A stretch of 64,000 nt of DNA from a virus. The stretch lies in the UHGV virus genome UHGV-0033085, one strand, 5' to 3'. The notes below the pieces were generated by a model that worked only from the letters and a program-made list of their open reading frames with translations, did no database searches and had not been told where the DNA came from. Made by a program: the position numbers and the translations under genes. How positions within the stretch are numbered: position 1 is the stretch's first letter; each line of letters begins with the position of its first letter. Shown here piece after piece: positions 8,798 through 63,347 of the stretch.

Positions 8798-9316
8798 TTA
8801 AAACGGAAGGATTCGTTCAACCCAATCGAAGAAAATAAGTATTTTTCTGCCGTCTTCCAACTTAAGTGTGACTAGACAGGCGTCAACGCCATCTGACGTT
8901 CCCTCAATTTCGCGACCGTCTGCCATGTAGACCCTTATAGATTTGCCGTTTTGGTAAGCCTGACGACATATCTTAAAAAAGTCACGACGTGATGGCTGAT
9001 TAACCATCTGTTCATTGTTTAGCGTTAGTCGACCTGTGAATGAAGTGTCAACCTCTTCTATGCCCGACTCAATTGTGCTAATGCGCTCAAGAGGGAGCCT
9101 TACACGATTTGTGTTGCTAAACGGATCTGGTGTGAGGTTCAGCTTATTTCTTGCGCTCAACAGCCCGTAGACATACATGCAAAACACTTGGCCGTCTTCG
9201 AGAGTGACTCTTACAGGAAATTGAGCACTCCGCCAGAAGAGCAAGGTGCGCTCAGCATGTTCGTAGTCTCGCGGCCAGACTTCAGCCGGTATGCCGTAGG
9301 TGATGTCTTTAACCAT
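8798..9316 (-). CDS. hypothetical protein
   Basis: ORF track. Confidence 0.5.
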   Translation of the reverse strand: MVKDITYGIPAEVWPRDYEHAERTLLFWRSAQFPVRVTLEDGQVFCMYVYGLLSARNKLNLTPDPFSNTNRVRLPLERISTIESGIEEVDTSFTGRLTLNNEQMVNQPSRRDFFKICRQAYQNGKSIRVYMADGREIEGTSDGVDACLVTLKLEDGRKILIFFDWVERILPF

Positions 9317-12346: not shown

Positions 12347-13906
12347 CTAATCTCGTTTCAGAATTCCAAAATCGAATGCGCCATCAATAGGCAATACACC
12401 TTCCGCAAAGCCAGGTGTGGTGTCGATGATGTGTTTTCGCTCATAAGAGTGAGACAACAGGTATTTGTTGCTAGTGTCAATGAAATCAGTGATAAAACAC
12501 ACGTTTGCCTGATTCTTCTTGGCTCGTAAGCCACGACCGACACGCTGCCTCATTTCAACTTCTGCTTTCCCACCACCAGCAAGAATGACCGCACCAACGC
12601 TTGGCACATCAACACCGACATCCAGAATAGTCGAGCCTATTAAAACATCTATTTCTCCAGACGCTAAACTGTTCAGCTTTGCTTGCCTTGTCGCCTGGTT
12701 AGATTCCCCATAGATGAAATCAACTCTAAGACCTGACTCCTTCATCATCTCCATCAGGATTTGCCCGTGGCGTTTAAGACGAACCAGAGTCATGCAGTTG
12801 AGTGAATGTTGCTTATAAAGCAATGCCTCGCGCACTATGGCCTCGTTACGTCCCAAATTATACACGATCCCCAACTGATAAGCCTTTTGGTAGGCGGTGC
12901 TCATACCAACTCTAAAATTGAGGTGTTTGTTGGCAAGTTCGGCCTTGATTCTGGTCTCGTCTGGCTTGTAGGCAACTTTATGATAAAGGAAGTACGGCTT
13001 TGCCAGAATGCCTCGATCAATCAGGTACTTTTCTGTGACTTTAATTTCAATTCGACCGGCCACAGCCATCAGACGCATGTTGGCTTCTGTAGAATCCTTC
13101 ATGAACGGCGTGGCCGTAAGCGCCAGACGATAGTCTGCGTTCACACATAATCTGGCAATGTCATAGAAATTAGAGCCTGAAGACTCATGCGCTTCTTCCA
13201 GAATAAGTAGAGACACACTTGAAAGGAAGCGTTTCACTAGCTCCCGACGTTTGAGGTGGTAGCTCTTTTTATCTGGTGTTGCATCGCGTGGTGGTTCTTC
13301 AAGGAAACTTGCCAGAGTTTGAACTGTAGCGACGTTGATATGTCGTGATACCTGGAACTCACCCGAGCCAATGACTCCAACCTTTTGGTCCTTTAACCAC
13401 GGTTCGCCATTTTCGGCGCGGTAGTCGATGGATCTCTGGAAGTTTTCGGCCATTTGAAACATCAGAACAGAGCGGGTTGTTAAAAATAATGTCATTCGAC
13501 CGATACGTGCAGCTGCTTTGCAGGCAACGTTAGATTTCCCACCACCAGTAGCGATCTGCGCAATCATCATTCCCTCGCGAACTAGTGTTTCCACAGTCTG
13601 ATCCTGATACGCATAATCAGGATTGTATGGGAATGGGTTAACCGCCGGATTTGGCTTTCCAAGCGCCGGGGCTTTGTCTTTGCGGATATGAACACATTTG
13701 ATGCCCGCCTTGTTCAAGTTCGCCGCTACAGGCTTGGCAAATCCAGCAGGGAACGAGTTTTTACTCCAGTTGAACATCGTGCTTGTGCCCTTCCAGTCGC
13801 CAGTCTCGACTTCGTAGCTCAACATTTGCTGCACCAGTTGCTTTACCTTGTCATCTGCGCCAGAAATAAGCGCATTTACTGCGTTAGATACAATCCGAAC
13901 AGTCAT
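12347..13906 (-). CDS. superfamily 2 DEAD/DEAH-box helicase
   Basis: Motif I ATGGGKS, motif II LEEAHE, motif III TATP, motif VI QRVGRGLR. Confidence 0.8.
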   Translation of the reverse strand: MTVRIVSNAVNALISGADDKVKQLVQQMLSYEVETGDWKGTSTMFNWSKNSFPAGFAKPVAANLNKAGIKCVHIRKDKAPALGKPNPAVNPFPYNPDYAYQDQTVETLVREGMMIAQIATGGGKSNVACKAAARIGRMTLFLTTRSVLMFQMAENFQRSIDYRAENGEPWLKDQKVGVIGSGEFQVSRHINVATVQTLASFLEEPPRDATPDKKSYHLKRRELVKRFLSSVSLLILEEAHESSGSNFYDIARLCVNADYRLALTATPFMKDSTEANMRLMAVAGRIEIKVTEKYLIDRGILAKPYFLYHKVAYKPDETRIKAELANKHLNFRVGMSTAYQKAYQLGIVYNLGRNEAIVREALLYKQHSLNCMTLVRLKRHGQILMEMMKESGLRVDFIYGESNQATRQAKLNSLASGEIDVLIGSTILDVGVDVPSVGAVILAGGGKAEVEMRQRVGRGLRAKKNQANVCFITDFIDTSNKYLLSHSYERKHIIDTTPGFAEGVLPIDGAFDFGILKRD

Positions 13907-13970: not shown

Positions 13971-14669
13971 GTGGATTGTAGCAATAAAATGGACGTAAAA
14001 ATCACGATTTTGCAGGTTGATGTTGCCAACCTTCGCCCGAATACCTGGAACACAAATTCGGTTGGTGCGCAGAATTTTGAAAAACTGAAAGGTTCTATCG
14101 AAAAATTGGGCTTTTTTAAGCCAATTTTGGCTCGTGAACTTGAAGATGGATTTTTTGAAATCCTCGGCGGCGAACATCGCTGGCGTGCTGCTATTGAGCA
14201 AGGAATTTCAACGGTTCCGGTACTTTCTGTGGGCAAAATTAGCGATGTCGTGGCAAAACAGATGTCACTGGTGGACAACGAGCGATACGGTGAAGACGAC
14301 CAAATCGCATTGCAACGCTTCATTGAAGAAATTCAGTCAGAACTTGACTATCAACTGTCTGAAATCGCCCCGTATGACGACGAAATCTCGATGGTTTTAG
14401 CAAAAGAGGCTGCAATCGACCTTGAAGTACTGGAGGCGTTGTCTCGTGGTAGTGATGAGCCTGTCGATACCGACAAACGAGAGAAAACCGAACGTGTGGG
14501 GGCGGAACATCAGACCATGCGCTTCAAAGTAACTTTCGATGCGTCAGATCGTGTTGCAGAAACCATAAAAAACATCATCAAAGAGCAGGCTATTAACACC
14601 GGTAATGAAATGGAGAACGCTGGTGAGGCTCTGGTGTGGCTGGTCGACTACTACAAGGAGCGTATGTAA
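13971..14669 (+). CDS. ParB/Srx N-terminal domain protein
   Basis: GGEHRWRAA motif; start may be ATG 13989. Confidence 0.65.
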   Translation: MDCSNKMDVKITILQVDVANLRPNTWNTNSVGAQNFEKLKGSIEKLGFFKPILARELEDGFFEILGGEHRWRAAIEQGISTVPVLSVGKISDVVAKQMSLVDNERYGEDDQIALQRFIEEIQSELDYQLSEIAPYDDEISMVLAKEAAIDLEVLEALSRGSDEPVDTDKREKTERVGAEHQTMRFKVTFDASDRVAETIKNIIKEQAINTGNEMENAGEALVWLVDYYKERM

Positions 14670-15337
14670 TGACCAAAAAGTTTGAAATCGTATATCGCGA
14701 CCCGGCAGATCTTATTCCCTATGAGATGAATGCCAAAAAGCATGATGAACAGCAGATCAGAGATCTGGCCGCAGCCATTAAAAAGCGTGGATTTGACCAG
14801 CCAATTACGGTCGATAAGAACGACGTAATTATTACTGGCCACGGCCGCCGTGAGGCTGCAATTTTTGCTGGACTTGAGCGCGTACCGGTTATTGTTCGCG
14901 ATGATCTCAGTGATGACGAGGTTCGTGCGAAGCGCCTTGAAGATAACCGACTTGCCAGCATTGATTACGATGCAATTAAGCTACAGAAAGAGCTTGAGTC
15001 GCTTGTTCTGGACGATATCGAGGTTTTCGGCTTTGAAGAGCGTGAGTTGAATGTTCTCGTTGGCAGTATGACAGAAGAAATGGACACCGACTCGCTAGTT
15101 ATCGATCTTGGCGAAGAAACTAAACGACAGAAGGATGAACACACCGAGATCAGTCGTGAAGTTGCAGCGGAAGAAGTACGTGTTGTCGACGTATTGGGCT
15201 TTAAAACGCTCCCTGCTGGCTCTGCCATTGTTGTTGGTGATTTGCTTGCCCACATGGAAGAAATGACAGGAGAAAGCGGGGTAGACGCATTTGTGGCATA
15301 TGCGGAGAAGATCTCTTCCGGGGAGATGGCTGCATGA
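14669..15337 (+). CDS. ParB/Srx N-terminal domain protein (second copy)
   Basis: GHGRREAA motif; ATG overlaps upstream stop. Confidence 0.65.
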   Translation: MTKKFEIVYRDPADLIPYEMNAKKHDEQQIRDLAAAIKKRGFDQPITVDKNDVIITGHGRREAAIFAGLERVPVIVRDDLSDDEVRAKRLEDNRLASIDYDAIKLQKELESLVLDDIEVFGFEERELNVLVGSMTEEMDTDSLVIDLGEETKRQKDEHTEISREVAAEEVRVVDVLGFKTLPAGSAIVVGDLLAHMEEMTGESGVDAFVAYAEKISSGEMAA

Positions 15338-15972
15338 GCAAATACATCATCAACGTATCGTTTCAGACACGCGTAAATAAAACCACGCGCACGTTGGAAA
15401 TCGCTGAGTCGTTCGGGCTTGGCCTGGACGAAAAAGAGTGGACGCTTTACGACAATCTGGAGCTGGAAGTGAAGCAGGGCGATGTGGTGTACATCACCGG
15501 CCAATCCGGTTCCGGCAAATCCGTTGTGCTGCGCGAGTTGCAACGACAGATGAAGGATGAAGGGCTGTCTGTAGCCTCCATCGATGATTTTACCTTCGAT
15601 AATGAGGTTAACGTCATCGATCAGTTGGGCAAAACGACCAGTGATGCGCTTGGGTTGTTATCTATGGCTGGTCTGAACGATGCATATCTGTTTGTTCGCA
15701 AGCCTTCTGAAATGTCAGACGGTCAGAAATATCGTCTCAAGATTGCCAAACTGATTGAGTCAGGCGCTAAAGTGTGGGCTGCTGACGAGTTCGGTGCTGT
15801 TCTAGACCGTGTAACCGCTCAGGTTGTGGCATCTAACCTCCAGCGTGCCGCTCGAAAGGTTGGTGCGACGGTAATGGTGGCGACGACTCACGAAGACCTG
15901 AAGAACGCGCTGCGCCCGGATATGCAGATCACCAAGCACTACAAAGAACGCGTGAAGGTGGAATATGCCTGA
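15334..15972 (+). CDS. ABC-type ATPase domain protein
   Basis: Walker A GQSGSGKS, signature-like MSDGQKYR, Walker B VWAADEFG, H-loop ATTHE. Confidence 0.65.
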   Translation: MSKYIINVSFQTRVNKTTRTLEIAESFGLGLDEKEWTLYDNLELEVKQGDVVYITGQSGSGKSVVLRELQRQMKDEGLSVASIDDFTFDNEVNVIDQLGKTTSDALGLLSMAGLNDAYLFVRKPSEMSDGQKYRLKIAKLIESGAKVWAADEFGAVLDRVTAQVVASNLQRAARKVGATVMVATTHEDLKNALRPDMQITKHYKERVKVEYA

Positions 15973-16219
15973 TTTGAAAATTGTAGAGCTGAAGCCATCG
16001 AAAGAGGATGACAATAACAATGTTGAGGTCATCCGCTTGCTGGAAGAAGCACTCCAGTACGCCAGAGAAGGCAAATCCCAGAGTCTGGCGCTGCTGATGA
16101 TCAATAGCGACGGCAGTGTTATGGATTGCTGGCATAACGGTGGGCGTCCATACGTCATGGTTGGGGCGATGGAATCGCTTCGCCTGGACTTCATCAATGC
16201 CAATATAGAGCGCAGGTGA
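15965..16219 (+). CDS. hypothetical protein
   Basis: ORF track; translationally coupled. Confidence 0.45.
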   Translation: MPDLKIVELKPSKEDDNNNVEVIRLLEEALQYAREGKSQSLALLMINSDGSVMDCWHNGGRPYVMVGAMESLRLDFINANIERR

Positions 16220-17115
16220 TCGACATGACAGACATCATCATCAAACGCTACCGCCCGGAAGAGTTCCCGCGTCATCTGGACTTTCTGGAGCGTATGACCG
16301 TTGCCAAAGGTACGGTTGAAGACTGGCACGCTCTTAAGTCTCTTCACTACAAAACAGACGGCAAACCTTTCGCACCAACTTATTATCGCTGCGAACTGGA
16401 TGGCCGTCTGGTGGGCGTCGTGGTAATGGCTTACCCGAAACTTTTGCTGGCACCTCGCCATCGCATGTTTCCTAAGTTGAAACCAACCACCAACACCACC
16501 GTGGCGAACCAGTACTGGGGGCGATACGTGAATAACAACTTCGCGGTGATCAGTCGATCAGTTGTGGATACCCAGTACCGTGGCGTAGGCGTCTCTTATC
16601 GAATGATTAACCTGGTTAGCAGGATGCATGACCGGCCAATCATTGAGATCCAGTCCTCGATGAGCAAATACAACCCCTTCGCCATGAAAGCAGGGTTCAG
16701 GTTCATCCGCCCTGAGCGACCGAAGAGCTATGAAAGTGCACTGCGTGTGTTCCAGCGCCATTTCCGCTCCGACCCGGGTGATAACGAAGCGATCGTCAAA
16801 GAGTTGTTCGCTATGAGCGATGCTCGTCGTCGCCGTGCACTGCGTGATCTGGTGGCGGACTACCACAAGAACAGTTCTCTGGCAAAAGCTGGGCGGAATC
16901 GTGGCACGACGATTCAGGACATTGCCGACAGTCTGGTGGACGAGGCCAGCATTGTGAAGCTGCTCAAGGACATTCACAACCTGAGCTTTACGTCTCCGTT
17001 GTATGGCGTGTACCGAAACCCTGACTTTGGTCGTCGACTGCCTGACACGCTGCCACTGCTGGCATTCGACAAACAACCTTTGGATAAACCGTTAGAAATT
17101 GCTTTACCGGCATAA
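16216..17115 (+). CDS. GNAT-like acetyltransferase-fold protein (tentative)
   Basis: QYRGVGVS and later KAGF motifs resemble GNAT motifs A and B. Confidence 0.45.
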   Translation: MIDMTDIIIKRYRPEEFPRHLDFLERMTVAKGTVEDWHALKSLHYKTDGKPFAPTYYRCELDGRLVGVVVMAYPKLLLAPRHRMFPKLKPTTNTTVANQYWGRYVNNNFAVISRSVVDTQYRGVGVSYRMINLVSRMHDRPIIEIQSSMSKYNPFAMKAGFRFIRPERPKSYESALRVFQRHFRSDPGDNEAIVKELFAMSDARRRRALRDLVADYHKNSSLAKAGRNRGTTIQDIADSLVDEASIVKLLKDIHNLSFTSPLYGVYRNPDFGRRLPDTLPLLAFDKQPLDKPLEIALPA

Positions 17116-17124
17116 GGATTTGCC

Positions 17125-17391
17125 ATGACGTTAACCGATAAACAAAAGGACATCATCAAAACGCTCAATCTCGGTTATGAGCGAGGTCATCTACTTGATC
17201 TGGACGAATTGCTTGAAGTTTTGCCGTACAAGACAACCAAGCAAAGTATCCAGTTCTCAATTCGTGCTCTGATAAAAAAGGGGCTGGTGGAGAAAGGGCA
17301 TACGCGCCAACGCAGTGACAATCGCTATCACCGCCGAACTCTTGGGTTAACCACTTTAGGTCGAGCCAAAGCGAAGTTACTGGTGATGTAA
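17125..17391 (+). CDS. hypothetical protein, possible winged-helix
   Basis: ORF track. Confidence 0.45.
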   Translation: MTLTDKQKDIIKTLNLGYERGHLLDLDELLEVLPYKTTKQSIQFSIRALIKKGLVEKGHTRQRSDNRYHRRTLGLTTLGRAKAKLLVM

Positions 17392-17415
17392 TCGGTCTGG
17401 GAGCTTATTTAAAGA

Positions 17416-17470
17416 CCTGCTTCTGTATATATAAATAATAAGTAATTTATTAAATATATACGGAAGCAGG
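17416..17470. repeat. 55-bp AT-rich palindromic element, copy 1
   Basis: CCTGCTTCTGTATATAT...ATATATACGGAAGCAGG; 54 of 55 identical to 49613-49667. Confidence 0.7.
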
Positions 17471-17508
17471 CTTAATAAGACATGCCCAGACCTAATTAAA
17501 CACCCCAG

Positions 17509-17548
17509 AAAACAAGTTGGTTAGCAGATGCAGTAAACAAGTTGTTTT
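17509..17548 (+). promoter_or_regulatory. two adjacent operator-like palindromes AAAACAagtTGGTTA and TAAACAagtTGTTTT
   Basis: AAAACA-N3-TGTTTT family, 40-80 nt upstream of the small terminase gene. Confidence 0.45.
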
Positions 17549-17587
17549 AGAGCGCATGGACGCGCTCTGTGTGTTTTAGAGGGATCT

Positions 17588-18220
17588 ATGACGGTCGAAA
17601 AAGACGAGGTAAAAACTCGCCTGACACCAGCGGAGTGGGCCGAAGCTGAAGCCAAATGGACGTCAGGCGAATATACACTCTCAAAGCTGGAGGAAGAGTA
17701 CGGCATTCGTCGTGAAACACTCTCCAGACATTTCAAAAAGCGAGGATTAGAGAAAGGCGCGGACTCTGTTGGGAAGATGGTTCGTGAGTCTCTTAAATCT
17801 GACGCAGAGCTTCGCGCTAAAGCCCGTGCGGAAAAGATAGAAGAACGTCGTACACGTTATGACGGCTGGGCGTATGCGTTGGGGCAGATGGTGATGGTCG
17901 AAGTCACTACGGCCAAACGTGATGGTAAGCCTTTAGGGGCGATTGAGGATTCTCTCAAGAGCTTACAGAGAGCCAGTAATACCCTTGCAAAATGCTTTGA
18001 AGTTTCGTCCAAAGCATTGGGCATGGATCATGCGGAAAATGACGAGGAAGAAATTCCGAACCTGGTATTTGGTGAGCTTACGCCTTCCCAGGTGGCGAAA
18101 TTACGTCAGGAAGACGACGAGCCTGAAATCATCGATGACGAATTGCTTGAGACGTTGGAAGAAGAAGCTCTAAGCGAATTTGATGCGACAGATGATGGAA
18201 GTGAAGGGGAGGACGAATAA
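17588..18220 (+). CDS. terminase small subunit (putative)
   Basis: HTH-like N-terminus, acidic C-terminus, directly upstream of the large terminase. Confidence 0.6.
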   Translation: MTVEKDEVKTRLTPAEWAEAEAKWTSGEYTLSKLEEEYGIRRETLSRHFKKRGLEKGADSVGKMVRESLKSDAELRAKARAEKIEERRTRYDGWAYALGQMVMVEVTTAKRDGKPLGAIEDSLKSLQRASNTLAKCFEVSSKALGMDHAENDEEEIPNLVFGELTPSQVAKLRQEDDEPEIIDDELLETLEEEALSEFDATDDGSEGEDE

Positions 18221-19476
18221 TGGCAATCCCGTCCTCGCTCAGTCTTGTGCAACTGCATTCTGGACAGATGAAAGTCTTCCAGTCTCCGCATCGATTTAAA
18301 GTTGTTTGTGCTGGTCGACGCTGGGGAAAATCCCGGTTGTCGATCTCCACTATTATTCGTGCGGCGGCAAAGGAAAAAAAGCAAAGGGTCTGGTATGTCG
18401 CTCCTACTTACCAGATGGCTCGCCAGATTTTGTGGGACGATCTACAGGAAGTTCTGCCTCGTAAGTGGGTTAGGAAAAAGAACGACACCACGATGACAAT
18501 CGTGTTGAAGAACGGTTCGGAGATCGCCCTCAAAGGTGCTGATAAGCCTGACACTCTGCGCGGCGTAGCGTTGCATTTTGTAGTGCTTGATGAATTTCAG
18601 GATATGAAGGCTGACACCTGGTACAAGGTGTTACGACCTACTCTTTCATCGACACGCGGCGGTGCACTGATCATTGGTACGCCAAAAGGCTTCTCGGAAT
18701 TTCACAAACTGTGGACTATAGGCCAGAACGTAGAGCTGCAAAGAAAGGGACAGTGGAAGAGCTGGCAGTTTGTAACTGCCGATTCTCCGTTTGTGCCTAC
18801 GGCGGAAATTGAAGCTGCTAAGAACGATATGGACCCGAAATCGTTCGCTCAGGAGTACCTGGCGAGCTTTGAGAACATGTCCGGGCGCGTTTACTACCCG
18901 TTCGATCGTAACGTGCATGTAAAACCGCTTCAGTTCAACCCTCGGTTGCCTATATGGGTAGGGCAGGACTTCAACATTGACCCGATGTCTTCAGTAATTT
19001 TGCAACCTCAGCCAAATGGTGAGCTATGGGCAATTGATGAATTGGTGCTCTTTTCCTCTAACACGGCAGAGGTTTGTGATGAGCTTGAGAGACGCTTCTG
19101 GCGCTGGAAATCACAGATAACGGTATTTCCAGATCCGGCAGGTGCTTATCGCCAACATGCTCGCGGGGAGTCTGACGTCGACATTTTCAAAGAGAAGGGA
19201 TTCTTACGTGTCGATTATTCGAAAAAGCACCCGCCAATTGCGGATCGTGTTAATGCTGTTAACCGAATGCTGATGACCGCATCTGGAGATATCCGGTTGT
19301 ATATCGATCCGAAGTGCAAGCATTTGATTGATTCACTGGAAAAAGTCATCTACAAGCCTGGAACACGAGATATGGATAAGACAGGTGGCATTGAGCATAG
19401 TGCAGACGCATTGGGCTATCCAGTACATCGTAGGTATCCAGTCAAAAACCGTGTTATTCTTGGTGGTTCTCGATAG
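18220..19476 (+). CDS. terminase large subunit
   Basis: Walker A-like VVCAGRRWGKSR, Walker B VVLDEF; position before portal. Confidence 0.85.
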   Translation: MAIPSSLSLVQLHSGQMKVFQSPHRFKVVCAGRRWGKSRLSISTIIRAAAKEKKQRVWYVAPTYQMARQILWDDLQEVLPRKWVRKKNDTTMTIVLKNGSEIALKGADKPDTLRGVALHFVVLDEFQDMKADTWYKVLRPTLSSTRGGALIIGTPKGFSEFHKLWTIGQNVELQRKGQWKSWQFVTADSPFVPTAEIEAAKNDMDPKSFAQEYLASFENMSGRVYYPFDRNVHVKPLQFNPRLPIWVGQDFNIDPMSSVILQPQPNGELWAIDELVLFSSNTAEVCDELERRFWRWKSQITVFPDPAGAYRQHARGESDVDIFKEKGFLRVDYSKKHPPIADRVNAVNRMLMTASGDIRLYIDPKCKHLIDSLEKVIYKPGTRDMDKTGGIEHSADALGYPVHRRYPVKNRVILGGSR

Positions 19477-47653: not shown

Positions 47654-48322
47654 ATGACCAAGATCTTTGTGGTTGGCGGCACAAAGGGCGGGCCTGGCAA
47701 ATCCACCGTTGCCCAGCAAATTGCCGTTTGCCTGAAAGTCAAAAAGAAGAAGAAGGTTTATATCACTGATATAGATATTCAGCGCACGACAACGAGCTGG
47801 TGTGAAGACCGTCGACAGAACGAATACCTTGAGCTGATTCCTTTTGCATACGTTCAGGATGACATCATTAAGCACCTAAAATCGCTTCAGGGTAGAGCTG
47901 AGTTTGTAGTGGTAGATGCTGGTGGCTTCGACTCCGAAATTCAGCGACAAGCGATGCTGATGGCCGACGTTATCATTATCCCGCTTCGTCCTAAGCGTCG
48001 TGATTTGAAATCTCTGCGTGACATCGATCCTATTATCGACAATGTTCGCAATGTAAACGATAAAGTGAAGGTCCGCGCGGTCATGAACCAGTGCCCGGCT
48101 TTGCCATCACAAGTGTCTCGCATTCTGGCGGCTAAAGAGATTGTTGAGACGTTTGGAATCGAGTCTGCGCCAGTCAATCTATATAACCGCAACGTCTATG
48201 ATGATGCGGAAGAGTCTGGTCGTTCTATCTTTGAAATGACCGGTAGCGAGCGCGACAAAAAGGCGGAAGCCGAGTTTGAAGAATTTGTAGATTATCTGTT
48301 GAGTCTGGAGGAAGAAGAATAA
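47654..48322 (+). CDS. parA: ParA-family partition ATPase
   Basis: Deviant Walker A GGTKGGPGKST; small type Ib-like ParA. Confidence 0.85.
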   Translation: MTKIFVVGGTKGGPGKSTVAQQIAVCLKVKKKKKVYITDIDIQRTTTSWCEDRRQNEYLELIPFAYVQDDIIKHLKSLQGRAEFVVVDAGGFDSEIQRQAMLMADVIIIPLRPKRRDLKSLRDIDPIIDNVRNVNDKVKVRAVMNQCPALPSQVSRILAAKEIVETFGIESAPVNLYNRNVYDDAEESGRSIFEMTGSERDKKAEAEFEEFVDYLLSLEEEE

Positions 48323-48681
48323 TGTCCATGAAAATGGGTGACCTAGCAAAGCGCAAAGAGCCTGATGCACCGGCTAAGAACACAACTCCTTTGCGCCAAC
48401 CAGTCAGACCACAGGGACGCCCGACTCGTGGCAAAGAGAAAATTAAAAGCCGCACAATGTCACTGGAGGACGAATACTTCGAACTGCTGGAGATGATGAA
48501 GTTCATCCCTCGCTTCGAGAAGTTCACTCGTTCTGACGTGATTCGAGCAGCCATTTTCCATCTGGCAGAGAAGTCACCGCAGGAAATCGAGGACATCGTG
48601 AAATTGAATGAGGCGATCACCGCTGCCGATGTCACGATGCGTACCGATGAAATCAAACGAGAGTTGATGAAGAAAGGTTAA
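48322..48681 (+). CDS. ParG-like partition partner (putative)
   Basis: Small basic protein coupled to parA. Confidence 0.45.
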   Translation: MSMKMGDLAKRKEPDAPAKNTTPLRQPVRPQGRPTRGKEKIKSRTMSLEDEYFELLEMMKFIPRFEKFTRSDVIRAAIFHLAEKSPQEIEDIVKLNEAITAADVTMRTDEIKRELMKKG

Positions 48682-48733: not shown

Positions 48734-49501
48734 TTATGCCGCGCTAACACTATGTTCAGTCCTAACCACCCCAACCTTCACAAAAGGGCTACCGTAGCTT
48801 GGTGGCTTCTTGATTAATTTGCCTACATACAGTTTTCTAATATGCTCATCGGCTATTCTGCCAACAAATTCATAACGTTTTGTGTCGGGGCCAAGAGCTA
48901 TATCCCTTGTAAAGTACTGCTGAGAACCGGCTTTGACCCAGCATTCAATCTGATAAACTTCCATTATCAGCCCACCATATGTAGCGTAGGCATATTTGAG
49001 ATTCTCGTCTCTTGGAACCTTTGCCCATACGCCACGCGTAGCTTCATATAATGCCAGAGCGGACATTCCTGACTTGTAGGTGCTGTTTAGCAGGAAGGCA
49101 AGACCGGCGTGCTCAGGAGCAATTTCAGTTTCCTCTTGCAGCACTAAGTGATGGTAGGCGTCCAGTGATATTCTGCCCATCATGGAACCACTTCCTCGTA
49201 CCTTATTCGTAAGCTCTCCGACCCCCATAAGGTCGATGCATGTCGCCTCAACAAGTTTGGCTGTGGTTTCATCCATACCATGACGAAGTATATCTATGCC
49301 TAATTTTTTATTAGCCAAAAGTTCTTTGATCCGCATGGATTTGGGAGAGTCATCGGGATACTTGATGTGATCGAGACAACGAGTCGATTTGCCTTTTCCT
49401 ATGTAAAACGGTCTTTTCATCTTGTCTTCTGTATCATAGAGACAGTAAACATAGTATTTAGCCTTATCCAATGATCTCGCGTATACCGATAAATCGTCCA
49501 T
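48734..49501 (-). CDS. GIY-YIG nuclease domain protein
   Basis: N-terminal YYVYCLYD...PFYIGKGK motif. Confidence 0.6.
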   Translation of the reverse strand: MDDLSVYARSLDKAKYYVYCLYDTEDKMKRPFYIGKGKSTRCLDHIKYPDDSPKSMRIKELLANKKLGIDILRHGMDETTAKLVEATCIDLMGVGELTNKVRGSGSMMGRISLDAYHHLVLQEETEIAPEHAGLAFLLNSTYKSGMSALALYEATRGVWAKVPRDENLKYAYATYGGLIMEVYQIECWVKAGSQQYFTRDIALGPDTKRYEFVGRIADEHIRKLYVGKLIKKPPSYGSPFVKVGVVRTEHSVSAA

Positions 49502-57469: not shown

Positions 57470-57544
57470 GATGGTGTAGCTCAGCGGTAGAGCAGTTGGC
57501 TGTTAACCAACTGGTCGGTGGTTCGAATCCACCCACCATCGCCA
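57470..57544 (+). tRNA. tRNA-Asn (anticodon GTT)
   Basis: Cloverleaf folded by hand: 7-bp acceptor, GCTC/GAGC D-stem, GTTGG/CCAAC anticodon stem, loop CTGTTAA, TTCGAAT T-loop, encoded CCA. Confidence 0.85.
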
Positions 57545-57549
57545 ATTTA

Positions 57550-57636
57550 GGGGAGTTAGTCCGTAGAGGTAGCGGTGTAGACTGTAAATCTACTGTCATG
57601 GCGACTCGGGTGGTTCGACTCCATCACTCCCCACCA
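57550..57636 (+). tRNA. tRNA-Tyr (anticodon GTA), type II
   Basis: Acceptor GGGGAGT/ACTCCCC, anticodon stem GTAGA/TCTAC with loop CTGTAAA, long variable arm, TTCGACT T-loop, encoded CCA. Confidence 0.8.
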
Positions 57637-57640
57637 AATT

Positions 57641-57716
57641 GCCGGTTTAGCTCAGTTGGTAGAGCGCCTGCCTTGTAAGCAGGATGTCAGCGGTTCGAGT
57701 CCGTTAACCGGCACCA
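57641..57716 (+). tRNA. tRNA-Thr (anticodon TGT)
   Basis: Acceptor GCCGGTT/AACCGGC, GCTC/GAGC D-stem, anticodon stem CCTGC/GCAGG with loop CTTGTAA, TTCGAGT T-loop, CCA. Confidence 0.85.
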
Positions 57717-57717
57717 A

Positions 57718-57806
57718 CACAACAGGTAAGTGCATTGGGCGAATCGGCGATACTGACCCACAAGCCCGTAAATCGATAGAGTCAGACCAGTGCTCTTACC
57801 GTTGTG
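57718..57806 (+). repeat. long stem-loop element C (CACAACAGGTAAG ... CTTACCGTTGTG)
   Basis: 12-bp arms around about 64 nt, immediately after tRNA-Thr. Confidence 0.55.
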
Positions 57807-57857
57807 AGGAAGTGCAGCTCTTTGAGGCAACCAGAAGATAAGCATCTGGCTTCACAA

Positions 57858-57936
57858 CACAACGATAAGATCATTACGGTTAATCGTCGTTCATGTGCAC
57901 AATGACTGGTCGAAAGGTAGTGATCTTACCGTTGTG
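57858..57936 (+). repeat. long stem-loop element D (CACAACGATAAGA ... TCTTACCGTTGTG)
   Basis: 13-bp arms with one mismatch around about 53 nt. Confidence 0.55.
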
Positions 57937-58080
57937 GTGGATTCGCAGACTGATGCGATAGCTTTCTTGGATGTTAGGGAAATGCGGCCGCAAATCTTCC
58001 CTTTCGCGAGCGGTGATCGTCCGTAGTCCTAATTGGCTGCACCGTATGCCGGAGATTCAGTACCGGCCACCACAACGGCC

Positions 58081-58167
58081 GGAGAGTAGGGAGCATGGTG
58101 CTCAAGCGGTCTTGAAAACCGTCCCATTGCGCAAGCGATGATGGTTCGATTCCATTACTCTCCGCCA
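58081..58167 (+). tRNA. tRNA-Ser (anticodon TGA), type II
   Basis: Acceptor GGAGAGT/ACTCTCC, anticodon stem GCGGT/ACCGT with loop CTTGAAA, 17-nt variable arm, TTCGATT T-loop, discriminator G, CCA. Confidence 0.8.
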
Positions 58168-61238: not shown

Positions 61239-63347
61239 ATGTCTAAAAAACGTTCCATCAAAGAGGTTCAGGACTTCCGTGACAGTGTAAAACGAGTAGT
61301 CGCTCTCCTTTCAGGTAAAAACATCCCTGTTGCAGAACGAGGGGACGACGCTTATGTACGCTATAACGATGATGGAGAGCCAATTCTCGTAAACATCCCA
61401 TCAATCCCGGATAACGCAACACCGGCATTGATGAATGCTGTGCGCGGATTTCTCGATCATGAGGTTGCTCACATTTTGTTTACCGATATTCGTGTGTCCA
61501 ACAAAATGAGAGAAAAAGGACGCGTTCCTTCCTGGTCGCTATGGAATGCCTTAGAAGACGTGTTCATCGAGCGAAAAATGGGTCAGGTCTTTAACGGAAC
61601 AAGACGTAATCTGATGGCAACTCAGCGCCTTATAATCGAAAAAGTCTTTAAACCAAAGGCTTCAGAGGCTATTGCTTATTGTGGCAAAGATCAGCGCGCG
61701 CTTTTTCTAAACTTCTTTCTCTGTCCGGTTGTAAGAGCCTGGGATGGCCAAGCACCGTTCGTAGATTTCATGGATGAACATTGGCCTGTCATTGAGAAAC
61801 CAATTTCATTATTAAAAGAACATGGTATCGATGTGGCCGTGCGTAACATGTCTTGCACCGAGGATTGTGTAAAGGTGGCTGCGACCATAGCTAAGATCCT
61901 CAAAGACACTGAAAGTGAAAGCAAAGGTAAGGAGTCAGCTCCGGGAAAAACTTCCGATCCTTCAGACGCTGACCAGACGGATGCCTCTGGAGAAAACAAT
62001 GAAGACAACGAAGATCATGAGACACCCTCAGCGTTAGATAATCACAAATCTATCAAATCAGAATCACATAGTAAGTACAAACATGATAATAACGACAGTG
62101 ATGATTCAGATAATTCTGAATCATCAGAAACAATATTCGATGATACAGAAAATGATAAAGAGGTATCAGATTCTGATGCTTCTGATAACGCGGCGTCAGA
62201 ATCATTAACCGCTGACCACGAAAAAAGAAAAACGACAGAAGACGGCTCTTCAGATATCCCAACTCCGTCAAAAATGAGTCTGGAAGAGGCTTTAGAGGAG
62301 TTGGATAGCATGGAAGATGAAGTCGGAGGCATGACAGAAGATGCGCTATCCGAAACGATTAAAAGCGAGTTAACAGAAAGCTCGAAAAGCGAATACAGGC
62401 CATACAATCGCTCATACGACTTCATCGGCTCGATTGATCAGGCAGAAGCCCATATCAAACGGCTTATTAAAACATTCTCCGATATTGATTTGGGAGGATA
62501 TCCAATCAGCCGCTATCGCATCGTTCCTGAAGGCAACCAGCTCTTCGACAAATATATTGAAAAGCATCTTTCGTCAGGTGTTTCGTCGACGCTGGCAAAA
62601 GACCTGGAGCGAGCAATAGCAAGCAGAAACAGAGTTCAGTTTATACCGGGCCAGCGTCGGGGGCGCATTCATGGTTCTAGTATCTACAGATTAGCAATGA
62701 ATGATGCTCGCGTGTTTCGTAAAAAAGAAGAATCTAAAGCCGTTAACGCCTGTGTTCAACAAGTGATTGATTTATCAGGTTCAATGAGTGGTATAACGAT
62801 TAAACTGGCTCTTGCAAGTGCATATACCATCGCCGATGCCCTTGATCGAATAAATGTTCCCAACATTATCACCGGCTTCACTACATTTGGTAGTCATATG
62901 GCGGCAGGAGAACTTAAGGCTGTCAAGTATGAGTTCTCTCGCTTTGAATCTTTAATGCTACCTATCATCAAAAATTGGAATGAAAAGGTAAATTCTCGCG
63001 AAGTTCGCTCACGTATGGGGTGCGTAGGCTACACATTCCCACTTCTTAATAACGTGGATGGTGAAAGCATAGCCAGCCTTGCATCGTTATTTTCCGGTCG
63101 CTTGGAGGACAGGAAGATCATGCTTGTTCTGAGTGATGGCGCGCCGTGGGCTGTTGGGAGAGGTTTTGACGCTCATTTGCGTTCAGTTGCGAAGCAAATT
63201 GAAACGCAGACTGATATTGATTTGATGGCAATTGGCATCATGACTGACGCACCGGAGAGATTTTACTCAAATCATGCCCTGGTAACGAGCGTTGATAGTC
63301 TTGGTTCATCTGTAGTTACTGAACTATCTCGTATCATTTTAAAGTGA
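61239..63347 (+). CDS. von Willebrand factor A domain protein with acidic linker (CobT-like)
   Basis: MIDAS-like DLSGSMSG motif; long D/E/S-rich acidic segment. Confidence 0.7.
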   Translation: MSKKRSIKEVQDFRDSVKRVVALLSGKNIPVAERGDDAYVRYNDDGEPILVNIPSIPDNATPALMNAVRGFLDHEVAHILFTDIRVSNKMREKGRVPSWSLWNALEDVFIERKMGQVFNGTRRNLMATQRLIIEKVFKPKASEAIAYCGKDQRALFLNFFLCPVVRAWDGQAPFVDFMDEHWPVIEKPISLLKEHGIDVAVRNMSCTEDCVKVAATIAKILKDTESESKGKESAPGKTSDPSDADQTDASGENNEDNEDHETPSALDNHKSIKSESHSKYKHDNNDSDDSDNSESSETIFDDTENDKEVSDSDASDNAASESLTADHEKRKTTEDGSSDIPTPSKMSLEEALEELDSMEDEVGGMTEDALSETIKSELTESSKSEYRPYNRSYDFIGSIDQAEAHIKRLIKTFSDIDLGGYPISRYRIVPEGNQLFDKYIEKHLSSGVSSTLAKDLERAIASRNRVQFIPGQRRGRIHGSSIYRLAMNDARVFRKKEESKAVNACVQQVIDLSGSMSGITIKLALASAYTIADALDRINVPNIITGFTTFGSHMAAGELKAVKYEFSRFESLMLPIIKNWNEKVNSREVRSRMGCVGYTFPLLNNVDGESIASLASLFSGRLEDRKIMLVLSDGAPWAVGRGFDAHLRSVAKQIETQTDIDLMAIGIMTDAPERFYSNHALVTSVDSLGSSVVTELSRIILK

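Follow-up and report, generated by a model that had tools for sequence, protein, structure and literature searches.

A split ABC-GNAT enzyme and two ParB-like proteins ahead of the terminase genes of an SSU5-like phage-plasmid: a putative ParB-assisted nucleic-acid acylation module

What does a phage do with a run of six genes that combines two ParB-like proteins, an ABC-type ATPase and a GNAT-fold protein and ends immediately upstream of the terminase genes? This question is raised by positions 13971-17391 of the virus genome UHGV-0033085, which was analysed as a window of 64,000 nucleotides (window denoting this whole stretch of DNA throughout). The first-pass annotation had left the choice between accessory functions in DNA packaging, a second segregation module and a DNA-modification or defence function. 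Among these three roles, DNA modification turned out to be the best supported, by the prediction existing for the ABC-GNAT family, by domain fusions, by neighbouring genes for acyl-group enzymes and by a precedent for ParB-dependent modification. With moderate confidence, we propose that the cluster represents a ParB-assisted, ATP-dependent module for post-replicative acyl modification of nucleic acid, the target most likely being the phage's own double-stranded DNA (dsDNA). The element itself is, as far as nucleotide identity goes, an SSU5-like phage-plasmid, since the 3.4-kb cluster stretch shows 97-98% identity with Escherichia phages CMS-2020a, Cyrano and PhiR41_1, 86% with Salmonella phage SSU5 and 81-82% with Klebsiella phage-plasmids, and matches 772 PLSDB plasmids from Klebsiella, Escherichia, Enterobacter, Yersinia, Salmonella and other genera, 720 of them with at least 80% of the stretch present.

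The cluster consists of six open reading frames (ORFs) on the plus strand:

13989-14669, plus strand: ParB1, protein of 226 amino acids (aa) with a ParB/Srx N-terminal domain (Pfam ParB_N; phrog_723, E 8.5e-79)
14669-15337, plus strand: ParB2, ParB/Srx protein of 222 aa (Pfam ParB_N; phrog_930, E 1.2e-112)
15334-15972, plus strand: stand-alone ABC-type ATPase of 212 aa (ABC_tran, E 5.3e-13; phrog_293, E 2.5e-58)
15965-16219, plus strand: p84, small acidic ORF between the ABC and GNAT genes (phrog_796, E 7.5e-47)
16225-17115, plus strand: GNAT-fold protein of 296 aa, or 299 aa if starting at GTG 16216 (GNAT fold, motifs A and B)
17125-17391, plus strand: p88, small basic protein of 88 aa (phrog_900, E 1.9e-45)

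As described in the first-pass annotation, these ORFs are coupled and precede the terminase genes, all junctions being overlaps or gaps of at most 9 nt (TAATG between ParB1 and ParB2, ATGA between ParB2 and ABC, an 8-nt overlap between ABC and p84, a 5-nt gap or alternatively a GTGA overlap between p84 and GNAT, and 9 nt between GNAT and p88). A Shine-Dalgarno-like sequence was found at every junction, and scans for promoters and terminators within the cluster stayed at chance level. The start of ParB1 may be ATG 13989 (232 aa would result from GTG 13971). ParB2 starts at ATG 14669 and not at GTG 14636, because AAGGAG is located 9 nt upstream of the former and the annotations of SSU5 and Cyrano agree, and the GNAT protein probably starts at ATG 16225, because its homologues begin with MTDI. 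Scanning the cluster proteins against NCBIfam yielded nothing specific, and the PADLOC scan of the cluster for known defence systems gave only matches at P-loop level plus one to the ParB part of a methyltransferase model.

The 212-aa protein shows the complete series of ABC motifs in the expected order, i.e., Walker A (GQSGSGKS), signature (SDGQKYR), Walker B (VWAADEF) and H-loop (TTHED), which together with the ABC_tran match places it in the ABC ATPase superfamily and confirms the stand-alone ABC domain noticed earlier. An identity as ABC transporter, a label stemming from the ATPase domain only, was rejected, as a hydrophobic or membrane-partner protein is not found among the translations of 13971-17391. 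Equally wrong is the PHROGs label 'ABC transporter ATP-binding subunit' for the 299-aa protein, which is devoid of an ABC domain and represents the GNAT half. Although zero family matches were obtained for the latter in Pfam, NCBIfam and PADLOC, it possesses the fold as well as motifs A (Q/R-x-x-G-x-G/A) and B of the GNAT superfamily, both motifs being conserved in its family, so that its previous designation as GNAT-like is substantiated. The GNAT domain comprises residues ~25-165 and is followed by a conserved helical/beta domain (residues 170-299), for which two PDB searches with the C-terminal part (~170-299) did not reveal any structural match. The protein is basic (isoelectric point, pI, of 9.8; net charge +15), and structures similar to it include Mom, TmcA and NAT10, three GNATs which modify nucleic acids.

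A profile search with the 299-aa family retrieved 997 cluster representatives, many of which have a size of 450-500 aa and are matched over their C-terminal halves at E-values of 1e-24 to 1e-29, with ABC_tran at the N-terminus. When 17 of these fused proteins were aligned, they proved to be colinear, over their full lengths, with the ABC and GNAT proteins placed one after the other, the shared motifs including the ELSDGQKYR signature and, at the C-terminal end, Y..W.NP; the ABC protein corresponds to residues ~1-210. Moreover, tblastn with the fused family member P0173 covered the ABC and GNAT proteins of SSU5 and Cyrano in two pieces, and some relatives even reach the Pfam threshold for GNAT domains (Jace gp86, Acetyltransf_1 at 35.9 bits with a cutoff of 20.7). 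Judged from these alignments, the ABC and GNAT proteins are one enzyme family split over two genes and correspond, as two adjacent genes, to the ABC-GNAT fusion family COG2401. The respective label, 'MK0520, ABC-type ATPase fused to a predicted acetyltransferase domain', is already in use in the Cyrano entry and among JGI names. The fused form matches more than 570 IMG/VR stretches. In one fused protein, P0170, an intein with a LAGLIDADG domain is inserted within the ABC domain.

Both ParB-like proteins recognised earlier by the motifs GGEHRWRAA (ParB1) and GHGRREAA (ParB2) score above the Pfam ParB_N cutoff of 26.3 bits, ParB1 at 49.9 bits (E 3.4e-13) and ParB2 at 35 bits (E 1.5e-8). ParB1, which is present in all related loci, additionally matches Spo0J/ParB/Noc entries of the PDB (E 6e-9 to 1e-5). 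The ParB2 family is characterised by the motifs PYxxNAKxH, GHGRR, VPVxVRDDL and RLxDNR, and the AlphaFold2 model of ParB2 (mean predicted local distance difference test, pLDDT, of 81.7) shows a ParB nucleotide-binding fold followed by long acidic helices, with Foldseek matches to ParB-CDP, Noc and KorB (E 1e-7 to 1e-5) across ~130 residues. Hence, membership in the ParB/Srx superfamily (PF02195) is evident from both profiles and from the ParB2 model. Both proteins are strongly acidic (pI ~4.5; 4.55 for ParB1), with net charges of -14 and -20 in the C-terminal halves of ParB1 and ParB2, respectively. In alignments, the arginine patch is degenerate (canonical GERRxRA; GEHRWRA in ParB1 and GHGRREA in ParB2), and at the ENxxR position ParB1 has DNER shifted by one and ParB2 has DNR; the intact CTP-binding motifs of a canonical partition ParB thus appear to be missing from both. 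A helix-turn-helix (HTH) did not emerge for either protein from Pfam and NCBIfam and was not seen in the ParB2 model. Likewise, no nuclease feature was found in the two proteins, and the previously suggested designation as ParB-like nucleases finds no support. ParB2 matches the N-terminal 150 residues of ParB-methyltransferase fusions, both in phrog_498 (E 5.3e-32) and in the PADLOC model MTase_II PDLC03229 (E 2.7e-17). As it resembles the N-terminal part of ParB_N-methyltransferase fusions, ParB2 shows itself, by these profile matches, to be of a type habitually attached to DNA-modifying enzymes. In contrast to such fusions, a methyltransferase domain is lacking here and the partner, ABC-GNAT, is encoded separately.

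The association of this ParB type with ABC-GNAT is also found in unrelated phages of small size (34-62 kb). A ParB2-type ORF is located directly upstream of the fused ABC-GNAT gene in Pseudoalteromonas phage SL25 (hhalign probability 99.7%, E 2e-25), in Gordonia phage Jace (gp85, 96.6%) and in Gordonia phages Sisko (gp1) and AnClar (92.4%). The two ORFs of SL25, of 184 aa (ParB2-type) and 356 aa (ABC-GNAT), are unannotated and lie just upstream of the large terminase gene (locus L204, 3315-4918). Furthermore, single proteins of 664-699 aa combine a ParB_N-like part with Zn-ribbon, ABC and GNAT; the N-terminus of one of the fused proteins, P0210, matches the ParB2 profile at 95.2% (hhalign), and the ParB-ABC-GNAT fusion P0246 matches Pfam ParB_N at 7e-5. 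Fusions of PolB, ABC and GNAT exist as well. Besides, enzymes of acyl metabolism are encoded next to the fused gene in several phages. In Jace (gp85-88; locus L118, 4471-7236), ParB_N and ABC-GNAT genes are followed in a row by genes for an aspartate decarboxylase (2e-33) and a family III CoA-transferase (2e-8), which suggests that the latter two could make beta-alanyl-CoA as a custom donor for the GNAT enzyme. A formyltransferase (5e-10 to 3e-17) is encoded beside ABC-GNAT in Sisko, AnClar and Pseudomonas phage Komp_PAO1_1 (genes at L117 1814-2464, L202 2312-2962 and L203 5044-5661). In Sisko and AnClar, this is gene 3, which is labelled 'tRNA-methyltransferase' and in fact encodes a Formyl_trans_N protein; in Komp_PAO1_1, the ABC-GNAT gene sits after the tail-fibre genes and is then followed by the formyltransferase gene.

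Acylation of a DNA base has been predicted for a GNAT-plus-ABC-ATPase system (Iyer, Zhang, Burroughs & Aravind, NAR 2013), as recounted in a passage of PMC7824862 which mentions Tenacibaculum phage pT24 as an example, and pT24 is also among the tblastn matches of P0173. Colinear alignment assigns the ABC and GNAT proteins of the window to the same protein family as this predicted system (COG2401). However, the enzyme of the window is split, a cargo ORF lies between its halves, and two ParB paralogues and a winged helix-turn-helix (wHTH) protein flank it. Accordingly, the family and its predicted role are already in the literature, while the present version stands out by the division of the enzyme over two genes, by the ParB pair and by the wHTH protein. 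For the ParB part, ParB-dependent thymine dioxygenases are, by analogy, the closest working precedent. Phage ParB176 has been demonstrated experimentally to be needed for, and to activate, the post-replicative thymine dioxygenase 5mYOX176 specifically on dsDNA (PMC13229309, PNAS 2026). It keeps the nucleotide-binding and C-terminal domains without an obvious DNA-binding domain, only glycosyltransferases are found more often next to such dioxygenases than ParBs (27%) and terminases (19%), and ParB-dependent and ParB-independent dioxygenase subclasses coexist (PMC13229309). Analogously, the ParBs of the cluster appear to be of similar make-up and are found beside a putative DNA-modifying enzyme, and ParB-linked and ParB-free subclasses occur in both systems. 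In contrast, the enzyme acting with ParB176 is an iron/2-oxoglutarate (Fe/2OG) dioxygenase, whereas the cluster encodes an ABC-GNAT enzyme with two ParB paralogues. Mom of phage Mu, a GNAT-fold DNA adenine N6-carbamoylmethyl transferase, would be comparable as a GNAT acting on DNA. The GNAT protein does not belong to the Mom family, as a PDB profile search with it returned nothing at E <=1; Mom is also without ATPase or ParB partner, and the GNAT protein exceeds it by a conserved domain of ~130 aa at the C-terminus.

In the proposed modification module, the split ABC-GNAT enzyme would constitute the catalytic core. The ABC subunits might dimerise on ATP and perform the conformational work for clamping the substrate or exposing a base, and the basic GNAT subunit would then transfer an acyl group from acyl-CoA to the exocyclic amine of the base. 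A nucleic acid is favoured as substrate by the coupling to an ATPase, by the fusions with ParB_N and PolB and by the basic character of the GNAT protein, and we infer that this nucleic acid is DNA. The two acidic ParB paralogues, probably forming a heterodimer, would load the enzyme onto dsDNA or activate it there instead of binding a centromere, and p88 would target or regulate the system. As the genes end the replication/early arm, right before the terminase genes, DNA might receive its mark once it is replicated and no later than packaging, and a mark of this kind could protect or identify virion DNA. Going one step further, and more tentatively than for the module as such, SSU5-like phage-plasmids may bear a chemically undescribed base mark, an N-acyl group (e.g., acetyl or aminoacyl) on an exocyclic amine, which would be put on after replication by an ABC-GNAT enzyme needing a ParB heterodimer on duplex DNA, possibly in step with packaging. 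Relatives encoding aspartate decarboxylase and CoA-transferase or formyltransferase might then form elaborated versions (beta-alanyl or N-formyl-aminoacyl).

Several observations speak against this proposal. Protein and small-molecule acetyltransferases score equal to Mom as matches to the GNAT fold; as these matches are generic, the fold alone does not point to DNA. In the IMG/VR neighbourhoods, for which 80 loci with a fused ABC-GNAT gene were sampled, no ParB is encoded within 6 kb in 79 cases, hence ParB is not a universal partner of ABC-GNAT, and the expectation of finding a ParB beside every fused gene proved false for this clade, a ParB being encoded at one of the 80 loci. ParB-associated and ParB-free ABC-GNAT subclasses therefore both exist. 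The literature searched for SSU5-like phages does not report any modified base, and the GNAT-plus-ABC system is known by computational prediction only, the original DNA-acylation proposal (Iyer 2013, via PMC7824862) being, as presented in the passage concerned, purely computational. In addition, a gene for donor synthesis is not present in the SSU5-type cluster, and the tight coupling of TerL and ABC-GNAT genes in the IMG/VR clade could equally mean a role in packaging.

The cluster is bordered as follows:

12347-13906, minus strand: superfamily 2 (SF2) helicase with ResIII/DEAD and Helicase_C domains (Pfam ResIII, E 2.4e-14; Helicase_C, E 4.8e-13)
17392-17587, no strand assigned: spacer between cluster and TerS gene, with a palindrome of ~60 bp, an inverted repeat and a terminator-like hairpin
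17588-18220, plus strand: terminase small subunit, TerS (phrog_867, E 1.1e-100)
18220-19476, plus strand: terminase large subunit, TerL (Terminase_6N, E 3.1e-9; phrog_2 and phrog_10250)

Behind the cluster and the spacer of 196 nt, TerS, TerL, portal and structural genes follow, and replication genes, four tRNA genes, an integrase-family gene and a ParA-type ATPase gene are found further along the window. The order that is kept comprises the helicase gene on the minus strand, then ParB1, ParB2, ABC, zero to three small ORFs, GNAT and the wHTH protein, and finally TerS, TerL and portal. Where contig reach allows, it is conserved in loci from genomes of 30 alpha-, beta- and gammaproteobacterial species, with GNAT identity going down to 36% and many of the contigs having phage-plasmid size (96-118 kb). 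The same order was established in two further contigs and, from the annotated region inspected, in Pseudomonas phage nickie and Rhizobium phage RHEph10, and the GNAT gene also occurs in Stenotrophomonas and Xanthomonas phages. The helicase gene, divergent from the cluster, adjoins it in all full-length related loci and is a conserved neighbour inside the SSU5-like lineage; it was not found beside ABC-GNAT in the Gordonia and Pseudoalteromonas phages, in Komp_PAO1_1 or in prophage L200. On the phage side, the 31 records with the GNAT gene are exactly those encoding a TerL at least 53% identical to that of the window, i.e., all 31 of these close relatives keep the module, and the absence from close relatives that the first-pass annotation had named as refuting its reading was not observed. 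By this distribution, the module is a conserved core of the SSU5-like lineage.

The small proteins of the cluster differ in this respect. The gene for p84 is missing in Cyrano, PhiR41_1 and the loci L004, L009 and L011, and is replaced by unrelated small ORFs in L003 (Phage_gp49_66 and RyR), nickie (an ORF of 111 aa) and RHEph10 (DUF2829). Comparing the insertion positions (15965-16219 in the window, 6961-7999 in L003, 5646-5981 in L115 and 6405-6907 in L116), p84 is, from gene content, dispensable variable cargo outside the core, and the ABC/GNAT junction is an insertion hot spot. p88, the last gene product ahead of the terminase genes, has homologues at the same position in 24 of the 30 loci on genome contigs, plus L003 and L004. 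Its assignment as winged-helix protein in the first-pass annotation can be maintained as a probable one: p88 is probably a winged-helix DNA-binding protein, given weak matches (E 0.0025-0.05) to the wHTH regulators Sta1, Lrs14 and LexA of NCBIfam and a pI of 10.2, while a PDB match was not obtained.

Two features of the spacer were recorded in addition. An AT-rich imperfect palindrome of ~60 bp at 17414-17474 (CCTGCTTC...TATATAAATAATAA / TTATTAAATATATA...GAAGCAGG) is located between the p88 and TerS genes, and the linear genome records of SSU5 and Cyrano both stop 62 nt past the p88 stop codon, i.e., inside this palindrome. It may be a candidate cos/pac region, or the shared genome end may merely reflect an annotation convention. 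The start of TerS is closely preceded by a second inverted repeat (15-nt arms at 17509-17523 and 17534-17548) and a terminator-like hairpin (17548-17569). The TerL ORFs of Xenorhabdus hominickii (L009, 11944-14193) and Novosphingobium (L018, 12024-14540) are enlarged to ~750-840 aa, compared with 418 aa in the window, which suggests, from ORF length, that they contain inteins.

A role as packaging accessory is a rival reading, though an unlikely one. In it, ParB-like proteins and ABC ATPase would assist the terminase in recognising, cutting or holding the end of the genome, with a packaging component being modified by the GNAT protein. The linkage to terminase genes, one part of the earlier packaging idea, does recur. 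In the SSU5-type elements, TerS/TerL and the end of the deposited genome are immediately adjacent to the cluster. Among the 80 sampled IMG/VR loci, TerL lies upstream of the ABC-GNAT gene on the same strand in 62, with a gap of at most 100 nt in 45; in prophage L200, the ABC-GNAT gene overlaps TerL and closes the series of phage genes, and in Gordonia Sourvirus phages and SL25 it is found ahead of the terminase. Moreover, some ABC-GNAT proteins (P0196, P0209 and P0239, of 878-908 aa) carry an N-terminal P-loop NTPase, which in P0196 weakly matches the packaging ATPase Pox_A32 (E 0.017) and in P0209 has no Pfam match. The stretch following this NTPase resembles, by eye only, a PD-(D/E)xK nuclease, and both parts together would be a terminase-like pair fused to the ABC-GNAT enzyme. 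On the other hand, the TerL family is shared by 901 phage records, of which only the 31 closest carry the module, the next TerL relatives (identity of 46% or less) and in total ~870 records being without the GNAT gene; this TerL family hence works without the module. In Komp_PAO1_1, ABC-GNAT is encoded far from any annotated terminase in the stretch inspected, and downstream of the cluster in L004 a terminase gene is missing. Besides, it is hard to see what the neighbouring genes for aspartate decarboxylase, CoA-transferase and formyltransferase would contribute to packaging, and TerL already bears an RNaseH-like nuclease domain.

Equally unlikely is an acylation of proteins for host takeover or anti-defence, similar to the action of phiKMV Rac on RNA polymerase, with ABC and ParB proteins as regulators. 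The generic nature of the GNAT fold matches would fit such a role. However, a nucleic acid as substrate is more in keeping with the obligatory partnership with an ATPase, with the fusions to ParB_N and PolB and with a basic GNAT protein, a match to PADLOC or anti-defence families was not obtained beyond the generic P-loop, and takeover genes are usually variable, whereas the module belongs to the strict core of its lineage.

Acetylation of RNA or tRNA is less probable still. In this scenario, the enzyme would be a functional analogue of TmcA and NAT10, the RNA cytidine N4-acetyltransferases which make N4-acetylcytidine by means of NTPase and GNAT domains. In both cases an NTPase, a GNAT and a C-terminal part, there nucleic-acid-binding, would be combined, NTP hydrolysis possibly serving to present the base. 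TmcA (2zpa, E 3e-4) and NAT10 are among the Foldseek matches of the GNAT protein with long alignments, the formyltransferases encoded by relatives share their fold with Met-tRNA formyltransferase, and the phage encodes tRNAs and a protein resembling the tRNA-binding part of methionyl-tRNA synthetase (MetRS). The template modelling (TM) score for TmcA is low (0.31), however, and TmcA/NAT10 act on RNA with a RecD-helicase-like ATPase and DUF1726 fused to the GNAT domain, whereas the window encodes an ABC-class ATPase as a separate gene and no DUF1726, so that the GNAT protein does not belong to that family. The tRNA genes are 40 kb distant and none is for tRNA-Met, an Rfam scan of positions 1-22000 returned zero RNA elements, and the links with ParB, PolB and terminase favour DNA. 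The MetRS-like protein, encoded by the ORF at 49-861, has the Anticodon_3 and tRNA_bind domains of the MetRS C-terminus, and the four tRNA genes, at 57470-58167, are for Asn-GTT, Tyr-GTA, Thr-TGT and Ser-TGA.

At a slightly lower level of probability, a defence or exclusion system of the phage-plasmid against other mobile elements was considered. ParB/Srx proteins and ABC ATPases are known from conflict systems (DndB, DpdB and OLD-type ABC), and weak PADLOC matches to mad3/mad8 and PtuA-type ATPases were obtained. These matches, however, are limited to the P-loop region, an effector nuclease or toxin domain was not found in the cluster, and the module is invariant and syntenic over a deep phage lineage in a virion-gene neighbourhood instead of being part of a variable island.

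Least likely is a second segregation system of the plasmid in which the ParB-like proteins would bind a centromere, and this part of the first-pass annotation is rejected: although two ParB_N proteins are encoded in an element maintained as plasmid and share the ParB_N fold with ParABS systems, a cognate ParA gene does not adjoin the cluster, an HTH was not found, the CTP-binding motif and arginine patch are degenerate, the C-terminal halves are acidic, and the same ParB type occurs beside ABC-GNAT in the 34-62 kb phages and fused to it. The only ParA-type gene of the window encodes a ParA/MipZ-type ATPase of 222 aa (47654-48322), which together with an overlapping ORF of 119 aa (47654-48681 in total) is likely the true plasmid-partition module of the element.

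Other genes of the window observed in passing are those for a FljA-like 'repressor of phase-1 flagellin' (8798-9316, minus strand, 6.7e-69), a LEM-3-like GIY-YIG nuclease (48734-49501, minus strand) and a CobT-like VWA protein (61239-63347, plus strand).

Several database labels that have been misleading for this locus and its relatives can be corrected, namely 'ABC transporter', 'ParB-like partition protein/nuclease' and, in the Gordonia phages, 'tRNA-methyltransferase'. The ABC-GNAT family is widespread in phage lineages, with the prediction of DNA acylation dating from 2013, and its SSU5-type version resides in elements common in clinical Enterobacteriaceae, as reflected by the PLSDB plasmids mentioned above. 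With E. coli K-12 and Salmonella LT2 as stated hosts of PhiR41_1 and SSU5, respectively, the ideas of acylation and of ParB as cofactor are directly testable. If DNA acylation by the ParB-associated ABC-GNAT enzyme holds true, it would represent a new class of DNA modification chemistry and a second enzyme class dependent on repurposed ParB proteins, and might explain how these phage-plasmids evade restriction.

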